Positions 2,400-28,742 of a stretch of 50,329 nucleotides of DNA are shown one piece after another. The position numbers and the translations under genes were made by a program. Every line of letters begins with the position of its first letter. Position 1 is the first letter of the stretch. This DNA is from Octopus sinensis. Lineage: Eukaryota. The DNA is taken from contig NW_021834334.1 in the NCBI RefSeq assembly GCF_006345805.1, forward strand, positions 1 through 50,329. Direction: 5' to 3'. Below the pieces are notes generated by a model that worked only from the letters and a program-made list of their open reading frames with translations, did no database searches and was not told where the DNA came from.

Positions 2400-2641
2400 C
2401 AGTGATTATTCCATCTTTATAAATGATTGTCGTCTCTCTGAGCTTCCTTGCTGTAAATGGCATTTATGACATTCCGCCTATGACCTCTCAGGTGATTATT
2501 TAGTCCCGTTGCAGATATGTATGGTTTGAAACATACGTGACAGATAGAAATTGCAATTTCTACTGGATTGATCGGATCACTTTGTGAGATATGATACCCG
2601 TGAACTACCATACATCTCCTGAAACCCAAATTTACCTGCAA
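2400..2641 (-). mobile_element. Probable RTE LINE 3' end with C-terminal C2H2 zinc finger
   Basis: ORF 2417..2641 contains CHVCFKPYISATGLNNHLRGH (C-x2-C-x3-Y-x5-L-x2-H-x3-H, 2480-2542). A single finger of this GLxxHxRxH type ends many RTE ORFs. A short UTR and TA-rich tail follow. Confidence 0.5.
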
Positions 2642-2904
2642 GCCCTTTCACACACTACATATGTCGAATCATCCGTCCTATGAAGAAGATATAAATACAT
2701 AAATACAGACCAAGCCGCCCACACATATATCTATACATCATTATTGACTCCCGACACTTGTACATATCCACACACCCAGAACCCTGTTGATATTGAAATT
2801 CCAGTCCAGGAGCTTGGATTTAGATAAGAAACCGACTCTTTCTCTATTGCCAATATATCTAAAAATAATACTACTTGCCATACACATACACACATATGCA
2901 ATAT

Positions 2905-4825: not shown

Positions 4826-6060
4826 CTAGGATTGTGGACCTTTGAACACTAGACTGTTGTAGTAACTTGTCCTGAATTTAGATGAAGTGGATAGTACCTT
4901 CGGTCCAATACAATGTTGACCAGTTCTGGCATTTCTATAACACTGAATGCCAAAGTTAGGTACTAGCCCTTCTAAGGTTTTCCATATATATATTATTGCA
5001 TATCTCTCATACCTTCGCTCCAGGGAGTAAAACTGTAGTTTTCTCAGCCTATCCCTGCAGCTCATCCATTGCACTGTTTCAATCTTTTTTGTGTAGTGGC
5101 GTTGGACTGCTTCAAGCTCCGCTGTTAGTTTGGCAGCATGTGGTGACCATAACTAGGAGCAGTAGTTCAGGAGGCTGAGAACAAAGATTCTCTACAGGGT
5201 CAACATAGTTTCTTCGTCTCTTGTCTTGAAGGACCTCAGTATCCATCCTCCCAGCTGTCTGCACTTTGCTGCCATCTTGCTAATGTGCATATATGATGCG
5301 TCACTGCACATATTATTTCCCAAGACTTTGACTGCCTGTAACTCTGGGATTGTAGTGCCTTCAGGTCCTGTAAATGTAGATTGTACTGTATTCATGAGTT
5401 GAAATGTTCCAGCATTAAACAGCATGTTGTTTATTTCGGCCCACTTGTATATTGAATTTAGGTCCCGCTATAAGCTTGTGACATCATCTTGGTTTTTCTA
5501 TTGCCTGTGATAAATTTGTAGAATAGCTAGTGACAGTGGCTGTCCGGGTGACTGTAGGCATGTCTAAGAGGGCTATTATGGATAATAATGGCCCCAGAAC
5601 AGTTCCCGGGGGCGGAGGGCACCACTTAAAATTTGAGTTCAGAAAGGGCACCATTGGCTGCAACTATCTGACTTCTGTTTTTAAGGAAGTCATGCAGCTG
5701 CTCTCCCAGTTTACCAGCAATGCCAAGGTCCCGTAGCTTATGACTACTCATGCGATGATCTACCTTATCAAATGCCTTTGCAAAGTCAAGTTATATCACA
5801 CTGACATCTGAATGGTCAAGCAGCTGTTTCAAAACCCAGTGATAGTGCAGTAGGAGCTGTGTGAAGCAGCTTCTTCCTGGACGGATACCATGCTGAGTAT
5901 TGTTTAGTAGGTCATTTTCTTCTAGGAAGATTATCAACTTCTTTCAGATGGTTCGCTCTATGACTTTACTGATAGGTGAATTCAGAGAGATTGGCCTGTA
6001 GTTTTTGACCTCTGCTCTGCTTCCACCTTTGTGGATAGGGCATATAATACGTTCTTTCAG
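4826..6060 (-). mobile_element. Degraded LINE ORF2 (CR1/Jockey-group) RT and C-terminal region
   Basis: Minus-strand translation in order: ICPIHKGGSRAEVKNYRPISL, TQHGIRPGRSCFTQLL, LDFAKAFDKVDH, GTVLGPLL, GWILRSFKTRD, RLRKLQFYSLERRYERYAIIYIWKTLEGLVPN; multiple stops and frameshifts. Confidence 0.9.
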
Positions 6061-26596: not shown

Positions 26597-27162
26597 TATG
26601 GTATGGTGAATGTTGTAGTAAAAGTTGTAGTAGTAGTAGTAGTAGAGGTGGTTCTGGTGGTTCTGGCTGTGGTAATCGTTTTAGTAAGGCGATGGAGCAG
26701 TGGAAAGCAAATAAGAAGTAGAAGTTCCCTCTTTCTCGCACTTTCAGTCTGTCTATGTGGGTATATGATGCTGAAATGTTGGTGACCTTGGGTTATACAA
26801 AATACCGGAGGATAAGATAATTCTGATTTTAGTCATCATTATCCCCTCTCAGATTCACACACTTTTGCAGCGGTCCTTCTGGTTTTCTAAGCTCTGTAAA
26901 AGGACTCGGAAGATTGAGCGTCCAGCCAGGCTTTTTGCGACACCAGGAACTTTTCAGCAACATCCATCCATCCATACCTACCATCTTACCTACCTACCTA
27001 CCTACCTAACTAACTACCTACCTACCTACCTACCTACCTACATACCTACCTACCTACCTACATACATACATACATACATACATACATACATACATACATC
27101 ATACATACATACATACATACATACATACATACATACATACATACATACTTATATACATACAT

Positions 27163-28380
27163 ACTTGTCGGTCCTATATAGCTATGATCATAATCTGAAC
27201 AAGTTATGAAATTAATTAAATTCCTGGATGATCAAATGAAGCTGGTCTTAATTGTGAACCTCTCTCCTTGTTTGAATTGAAATTCCGAGTGTTCCAGTAA
27301 GTTGGGGCATATTCTGCAGTTTGGACGTCCACATTTTTTAACCACTGGTTTCGTGGTTGTTGTATAAAGTTTCGCATATGTCAGAAATGTTTTTGGAGTT
27401 TTTACATTTGATGAATTTACGTGTTTTCAGAATGTTTTTCATTTTTGGCTCCCTACAGAGCATAGGTACAATAGTGTTGTATGCCTCATTGATCATAGGA
27501 TTGTGAGTTTATATGTATGATAATATTTTGAGATGAAGTATGGTGCTTCATTTTGTTTCCCTTAGTGTTTGAATGCCTATTTTCTTGACACATTTAATTC
27601 CATCATCTAAAAGTGAGGGTGGATAATGTTTCTCACTTAGTGTTGTTCTAAGTTCTTTCAGACACCATTGCGCAAATCCTTTTCGCTAAATTAAAGGGAA
27701 TATTTCTTTTGATATGTTTCGGGTGGCATGAGGTAAACAGAAGATATTGCTTCGAGTCCGCTGGTTTAGGATAAACGTCAGTTACAATTTGACGAAATGA
27801 TTAGCGGTATTTCGTCTGCCGTTACGGTCTGAGTTCAAATTCCGCCAAGGTAGACTTTGCCTTTCATCCTTTCGGGGCCGATAAATTAACTACCAGTTAC
27901 GCACTGGAGTCGATGTAATCAAGTTAATCTTTTTGTCTGCCCCCTCTGTGTTTAGGCCCTTGTGGGCAATAAAGAAATAAGAAATAAGAAATAAGTTACA
28001 ATTTGGTTGACATTGTTTTTATCAGAATATCTAAGAAAGGGAGCTGTTGTTTGCTATATTTCGTTGTAAACTTAATGTTAGGAGTTATACTATTTAGTAT
28101 TGATTTAAATTCCGAAAGTTTATCAATAATCTCATTCCAAATAATAAAGTAGTCATCAAGATATCTTTTCCAGTTCTTTCTTATATAATGGTGAAATGTA
28201 TATCCATATTATTACAGTGGAACTTCGTATATGGTGAGTTCAAAACAATCCCATTATTAGGTTCGCCAGAACAGGGGCTGCTTTCGTTTCCATTGCAATC
28301 TCACATTTTTGTCGATAGTAGGTGTCATCAAATAGGAAACAATTCTTCTGAAGTATAAATTTTAAAGTTTCGATAATAGA
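27163..28380 (-). mobile_element. Penelope-like element (PLE) ORF remnant: RT, thumb, Cys linker and start of GIY-YIG endonuclease; interrupted by a SINE
   Basis: Minus-strand translation: LKFILQKNCFLFDDTYYRQKCEIAMETKAAPVLANL; WKRYLDDYFIIW (YLDD 28152-28163); IKFT..LPFLDILI; YLLFTSCHPKHIKRNIPF; KCGRPNCRICP (27304-27333); SRNLINFITC..SYIGPT (YIG 27172-27180). Confidence 0.93.
27792..27993 (+). mobile_element. 5'-truncated SINE family B inserted in the PLE, 12-bp TSD
   Basis: AGTTACAATTTG at 27780-27791 and 27994-28005; tail (AAGAAAT)n. Confidence 0.92.
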
Positions 28381-28396
28381 ATGAAAATAACTCCTA

Positions 28397-28429
28397 TGTC
28401 ATGATTAGCGAAAGCGAAACCGGTCGACA
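28397..28429 (+). ncRNA. Minimal type I hammerhead ribozyme motif (PLE type) with A3-U8 core variant
   Basis: TGTC-ATGATTA-GC GAAA GC-GAAA-CCGG-TC-GACA: stem I TGTC/GACA, stem II with GNRA loop, palindromic stem III ACCGGT, GUC site after 28425; lies about 17 bp from the PLE ORF breakpoint. Confidence 0.75.
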
Positions 28430-28742
28430 ACCACAATACTCTTTCATTTAAAATATATTAAAATATAAGTAAACTGTGTTGTATTTTCCTCCTTTTGTTT
28501 TATATGTGTGTATATATATATAATACAAATTTATGTGTGTACGTGTGTACGTGCGCGCGTGTGTGTGAGTGCTTTTGCGCTTTGTATTCGTACCTTAACC
28601 ACCGATTCACAACAAGTGTTGATGTGTTTATGTCCCCTGCAGCTGGCTTTGATAGGTATAGAAACAGCGCTTGAGGTAGCTGCTTTGGCAGCTGAACTTG
28701 TATTTATGTCTGTCTGTCTGTATTTATGTATGTATATAAATA

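Follow-up and report, generated by a model that had tools for sequence, protein, structure and literature searches.

The hammerhead motif and its surroundings

The window analysed here is the whole 50,329-nt stretch of Octopus sinensis DNA (contig NW_021834334.1, positions 1 to 50,329). At 28397-28429 on its forward strand lie 33 bases with the layout of a minimal type I hammerhead, in which the usual C-G at the 3-8 core pair is A-U. The motif is located in the pseudo-LTR (pLTR) of a Penelope-like element (PLE), and its structure and position together suggest that it is a PLE minimal type I hammerhead, albeit one without the CUGANGA consensus or an Rfam match. The features of the locus are given below with the evidence for each in brackets.

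28397-28429, forward strand: minimal type I hammerhead motif with an A3-U8 core (sequence, descriptor, shuffles, family counts)
28397-28400 paired with 28426-28429, forward strand: stem I, 4 bp (sequence)
28401-28407, forward strand: core positions 3-9, with A3 at 28401 and U8 at 28406 (sequence, family state)
28408-28415, forward strand: stem II, 2 bp (G10.1-C11.1), with a GAAA loop (sequence)
28416-28419, forward strand: G12AAA (sequence)
28419-28424, forward strand: palindromic stem III segment, predicted to form a 6-bp intermolecular helix in a dimer (cofold)
28425, forward strand: C17, with predicted cleavage 3' of this base (hammerhead numbering)
28380-28534, forward strand: inverted 5' pLTR fragment holding the motif and ending in a TA/TG microsatellite (blastn to the pLTRs of L025, L032 and L033)
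27994-28378, reverse strand: 5'-truncated, broken Penelope-like RT segment, including the YLDD motif region (protein matches)
27792-27993, forward strand: 202-bp insertion in the RT with a short-repeat tail, presumably SINE-like (sequence)
27156-27791, reverse strand: RT thumb, CX4CxxC linker and start of the GIY-YIG domain, ended by a microsatellite (tblastn, blastn)

The stems, GAAA loop and AUGAUUA core described in the original prediction were recovered letter by letter. Stem I, stem II and the core follow the type I order; U4 G5 A6, A9, G12 A13 A14, the A15.1-U16.1 pair, H17 and G10.1-C11.1 are all present, and positions 3 and 8 are Watson-Crick complementary. The literal CUGANGA core is absent, A3 and U8 standing in its place, as is the unpaired extra base that is usually, if not universally, found between A9 and stem II. 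Stem II is only 2 bp long, and there is no sign of a loop-loop contact. Hammerhead numbering places the predicted cleavage 3' of position 17.

A descriptor that accepts any Watson-Crick 3-8 pair, with a 4-bp stem I, a 2-bp stem II and a palindromic stem III, returned 28397-28429 as its single site across both strands of the window. Only two of 150 block-wise local dinucleotide shuffles gave a match, one each (mean 0.013), and the motif therefore exceeds chance. The Rfam hammerhead covariance models gave no match at E≤10, on either 9 kb or 151 nt, in keeping with the expectation that models of the canonical core would miss it. Identity as a non-LTR retrozyme was rejected, since the motif is single copy in the window and there are no short tandem repeats each bearing a hammerhead.

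The neighbouring Penelope RT that had been predicted is real, but it lies on the strand opposite to the motif and is broken by stops and frameshifts. Matches by tblastn place the RT ahead of a C-terminal GIY-YIG domain, with a CX2-5CxxC-type linker visible in the translation before the endonuclease, and the SINE-like insertion is flanked by a 12-bp target duplication (27780-27791 and 27994-28005). No sense 3' pLTR was found in the window. The loci L032 and L033 share one layout, with an inverted motif, RT-EN and a sense motif, and from this we take the window motif to belong to an inverted 5' pLTR whose sense 3' counterpart has been lost. The window copy, antisense to a dead ORF, cannot process the RNA of its own element, and as it also has no partner in cis it is likely an inert, dead passenger.

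Among the 92 of 96 filtered open frames that were scanned in the window, none gave a host gene above the Pfam cut-off. A weak C2H2 zinc-finger match at 2420-2647 (reverse strand) fell under that cut-off (E = 0.0015), and open frames at 4826-5152, 12838-13203 and 21649-22023 (all reverse strand) had no Pfam match; the latter three resemble LINE retrotransposon fragments in their motifs.

State of the 3-8 pair across the family

The genome searched comprises 2.72 Gb in 13,516 contigs. An exact scaffold search with positions 7 and 8 left free gave 157 matches against none in the control, and in the first 30 of these loci A3 and U8 were each present in 29. A wider search, with loop II also free and with counts that are exact-match lower bounds, found A3-U8 in at least 723 of 819 genomic scaffold matches and C3-G8 in none. 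The remainder were altered at position 3 only (35), at position 8 only (31) or at both (30). Independent decay predicts about 1.5 double changes rather than the 30 observed, and 28 of the 30 are still paired (21 U-A, 3 G-C and 4 U.G); of these doubly changed places around 20 were opened, and they proved to be mostly members of other families.

Since these searches use the motif itself, a motif-independent sample was also drawn, comprising the best 70 of 150 hits by endonuclease protein similarity. Twelve of the 70 had no motif region and one was gapped at position 3; among the 57 that could be scored, 56 were A3-U8 and one was A3-C8. A3-U8 is thus the family consensus, in support of the original prediction, and not the state of a singleton. 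The family is also old, given a mean pLTR identity of 0.83 in the protein-picked set, and its subfamilies vary at N7, in loop II (GAAA, GATA or GATT) and in stem I.

Variation in stem I is itself compensatory. Across 119 distinct contexts, A-U and G-C account for 69 and 33 at pair 3 and for 56 and 10 at pair 5, levels of covariation reached in none of 2000 shuffles; the set includes L041-L046, chosen deliberately for unusual bases at positions 7-8, so that minority states are inflated, and the changes amount to about two inherited events rather than 119. Conservation of the core within the family is weakly above that of its flanks in the protein-picked set, with a minor letter above 10% in about 1 of 12 core columns compared with 7 of 24 upstream columns. 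A second contrast (0 of 20 against 97 of 192) is stronger but partly circular. In contigs from four sequencing runs there was no change at core positions 3 and 8 among 40 of 92 rows listed, which weighs neither for nor against conservation.

Organisation of the element

A full unit of the family is found at L303, where two sense motifs 3,910 nt apart surround ORF1 and RT-EN. Direct and inverted pLTRs together with 5' truncation are seen at L032, L033, L303 and L305, and inverted pLTR copies are a known feature of PLE insertions (PMC8557442). The RVT_1 and GIY-YIG Pfam domains are both detected in the sister element L117, with GIY-YIG weak in copies of the window's own family. Rather than a single ORF, these elements have two overlapping ones, an ORF1 of about 450 aa with no Pfam match and an RT-EN of about 750 aa (L082-L140, L058-L081). 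A T TTT TTA G slippery site lies about 1.1-1.3 kb into the ORF region in all eight clusters of related elements described below (61 of 68 rows, two of the misses being spurious anchors), which makes a -1 programmed frameshift at the junction likely. The legend to Fig. 1 of PMC8557442 includes frameshifting among the features of some PLE types, and our full-text literature search found no report of a frameshift in Neptune elements.

Immediately upstream of the start of ORF1, several families also carry a conserved inverted repeat with arms of the CACGTG type (L009, reverse strand, 1420-1353, and equivalents), possibly a hairpin for RT initiation or protein binding. An intron was considered as well; there is a donor-like site 3' of the motif, and no conserved acceptor was found by eye.

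Related families and the history of the 3-8 pair

Searching with an ORF1 fragment yielded 150 hits; the 90 that were opened group into eight main clusters. U3-A8 occurs at the corresponding place in the pLTR in eight lineages (2-14 rows each, with a few U.G variants). In a second family all 30 loci are A3-U8, although the query contained the motif and three of the loci represent one element. G3-C8 characterises a third family, in 25 of 30 loci (L339-L368, e.g. L341 and L342), along with a 7-bp stem I and A17, and here C8 does not reflect query bias because the query itself was G3.U8. The outgroup, a distant young family (L171-L200, e.g. L176), has C3-G8 accompanied by U4C in 33 of 34 rows; it is present in high copy number, with protein identity of 99-100% among many copies. 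The related families of this one genome therefore display every Watson-Crick pair at 3-8, and the palindrome differs between families yet remains palindromic.

The core is not intact in every relative. Sister families, some of them young, show A13C (3 of 3 rows; L105, L110) or a one-base offset at the 16-17 junction (L066-L072), and in the second A-U family a base is inserted after G12 (L074). These breaks at U4, A13 and the 16-17 junction mean that catalysis may be under relaxed selection, and they suggest in particular a relaxed demand for speed. Avoidance of pairing between N3 and N17 was inconsistent across the families compared.

We placed these families on an RT-EN tree (IQ-TREE, LG+G4 without mixture) of 29 rows from the one genome, broken copies included. 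The window's family falls among the U3-A8 families with support of 99/99, apart from the second A-U family, which is sister to the G-C family (100/100). Grouping the purine-3 families as a single clade was rejected by the AU test (p = 0.003 and 0.0004); the two A3-U8 families do not form one clade. One row, L330, has its RT and motif from different families and was given no weight.

Given that most sister lineages carry U3-A8, the step in the window's family was probably from U-A to A-U. The original prediction of a compensatory core change thus stands in that the pair has been retained, but the change was probably not from C-G to A-U, as it had supposed. The simplest reading of the tree would have U3-A8 as basal, with position 3 flipping to a purine twice; one flip followed by reversions, or exchange of pLTRs between families, could instead account for the pattern.

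Other hammerhead-like copies were seen in passing. A different repeat in the genome carries a canonical C3-G8 minimal hammerhead (L166:453, forward strand; L219). Tandem copies of the motif occur 544-545 nt apart at L201:1655-2744, where stem I has a mismatch, and 427 nt apart at L202:1467-1894; their spacing is retrozyme-like, but they look like local duplications. Twelve matches from a metagenome pattern scan were treated as chance, as none lay beside a PLE protein or had a convincing stem I.

Predicted mechanism and alternative explanations

The monomer folds weakly (-3.4 kcal/mol) and places A3 and U4 in mispairs with 16.1-16.2. The minimum free energy (MFE) structure predicted for the homodimer is an exact double hammerhead, built on the palindromic stem III, at -14.9 kcal/mol compared with 2 x -3.4 kcal/mol. 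A palindrome-driven dimer was favoured for 10 of 10 family motifs folded, and the full double hammerhead was the MFE structure in 3 of the 10, using a two-dimensional model that is blind to the tertiary 3-8 pair.

Our preferred explanation, which we hold to be reasonably probable, is that this is a family-consensus minimal pLTR hammerhead whose 3-8 pair has been kept as A-U, and which likely cleaves slowly after C17, and then only as a dimer or with help from a protein. Two copies would pair through the palindrome and exchange stem I arms, giving the predicted double hammerhead. In a read-through transcript running from pLTR through the ORFs to a second pLTR, the two sense copies would, by analogy with other PLEs, cut out an RNA of unit length. 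Selection would retain complementarity at 3-8 because the active fold includes this pair, and A-U would have arisen from U-A, probably twice. In the published PLE hammerheads on which the analogy draws, activity was low (PMC4209133), and in the Anolis element it required protein (PMC11167929).

The alternative that survives best, though we think it rather unlikely, is that the fold and its 3-8 pair are kept as a structure that cuts barely or not at all, for example as a dimerisation or protein-binding signal of the element RNA. Such a role would sit comfortably with the tolerance of U4C, A13C and junction offsets in sister families, and with a dimer that was favoured in every motif folded. There are also precedents for dispensing with cleavage, as it is unneeded for insertion of the Anolis PLE in vitro and no RNA-seq ends were reported at the cut site of that element (PMC11167929), and Naiad elements proliferate without canonical hammerheads (PMC8557442). 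What argues for a ribozyme instead is that G5, A6, A9, G12, A14, A15.1 and U16.1 are retained across the families listed, and that the 3-8 pair belongs to the active fold and not to the ground state of minimal hammerheads (PMC3884650), so that its covariation points to the catalytic conformation.

It is improbable that the motif is a decayed ribozyme carried passively, with A3 and U8 fixed by chance in a founder copy. The age of the family, copy numbers that reflect a few master elements, and the weak unbiased conservation contrast within the family would all be in line with this. Against it, 3-8 has changed at both positions on at least four separate occasions on the tree, every time with a Watson-Crick pair as the outcome, and in none of the lineages examined is a mismatch the majority state; the compensatory changes in stem I also count against passive decay, which they leave as an already weakened reading. 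Finally, the proposal that A3 is selected because A3-U4-G5 forms a start codon, with U8 following to preserve the fold, seems very improbable. An AUG does stand at positions 3-5, in L009 it shares the frame of the ORF1 start that lies 171 nt further on, and the Anolis ORF begins inside its hammerhead (PMC11167929). The frame opened by the core AUG nevertheless runs for just 18 codons in L009 and 16 in the window, the families listed have a separate conserved start for ORF1 some 170-350 nt downstream, and the U3 and G3 families have no AUG at the core.

Returning to the slow, dimer-dependent or protein-assisted hammerhead that we prefer, a broader proposal can be put forward only tentatively: that all four 3-8 pairs occur in one retrotransposon radiation, that U-A flipped twice to purine-pyrimidine without a wobble path, and that the motifs with A3-U8 or G3-C8 cores act as ribozymes, dependent on a dimer or a protein, which have not been published before. 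If this were true, the number of genomic hammerheads would be underestimated by surveys based on CUGANGA, and ribozymes may be present in some PLE families so far described as lacking them. In this genome alone, hundreds of copies escape any search with C3 and G8 fixed, as they do the current Rfam models. Since the 3-8 pair is part of the active fold, its natural covariation through all four states is direct phylogenetic evidence for selection of PLE hammerheads on that fold, whatever their role in transposition. The families also offer a natural series (A-U, G-C, U-A and C-G on near-identical small scaffolds) with which the effects of core identity, dimerisation and proteins on cleavage rate could be compared.

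Comparison with known systems

In 2007 Przybilski and Hammann reportedly found any Watson-Crick 3-8 pair to be cleavage-competent in two type III ribozymes. When a type III hammerhead was mutated at every pair of positions, rescue was seen for the G:C swap only, all other double mutants in the core having low activity (PMC9901934), and the published data on an A-U swap at 3-8 are mixed. In the protein-assisted hammerhead of the Anolis Poseidon element PAc, the C3G/G8C double mutant is partly rescued (Frangieh et al. 2024, PMC11167929).

Natural U3-A8 pairs have already been published. They occur in the Schistosoma PLE hammerheads of Cercyon elements (PMC4209133), and Perreault et al. 2011 (PMC3088659) described natural 3-8 covariation, naming only U3-A8 for this pair in the text of their section on core variants. 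Among the 56 representative motifs in Fig. S3 of PMC4209133, 53 are C3-G8, two are U3-A8 and one is U3.G8, so that position 3 is never a purine. The full-text literature searched, a body that mostly leaves out subscription papers, among them the survey by Lünse et al. 2017, the largest of this class, yielded nothing on natural A3-U8 or G3-C8; nor is A3-U8 mentioned in the consulted parts of bioRxiv 10.64898/2026.07.22.740005, PMC6765202, PMC3884650, PMC6155905, PMC7229834 and PMC11014351. These two pairs may thus be apparently unreported, with Lünse et al. 2017 as the main risk to their novelty.

To go by its title, that paper by Lünse, Weinberg and Breaker (RNA Biol 14:1499) is said to concern small PLE-associated hammerhead variants that cleave as dimers.

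The closest relatives of the motif are the PLE hammerheads of Cervera and De la Pena 2014 (PMC4209133), with which it shares direct and inverted pLTR copies, short stems, a palindromic stem III and a predicted dimer, and whose minimal members cleave weakly as dimers. Unlike those, the motifs described here have A3-U8 or G3-C8 cores, a stem II of 2 bp and no base between A9 and stem II, the last being a feature of just two of the 56 motifs in Fig. S3 of that work. The variants of PMC3088659 likewise covary at 3-8 in nature, differing in that the pair named there is U3-A8 rather than A3-U8. The Anolis PAc element (PMC11167929) is similar in having a PLE hammerhead with a functional 3-8 pair, whereas its natural pair is C3-G8, its ORF starts inside the ribozyme and it has a single ORF. 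In overall organisation the octopus elements differ from Neptune/Nematis-type PLEs (Craig et al. 2021, PMC8557442) in joining ORF1 to RT-EN through a slippery heptamer, and the likeness is one of domains, the tree being of this genome only; the two nevertheless share the RT, the CX2-5CxxC linker and the C-terminal GIY-YIG domain, as well as direct and inverted pLTRs and microsatellite neighbourhoods.
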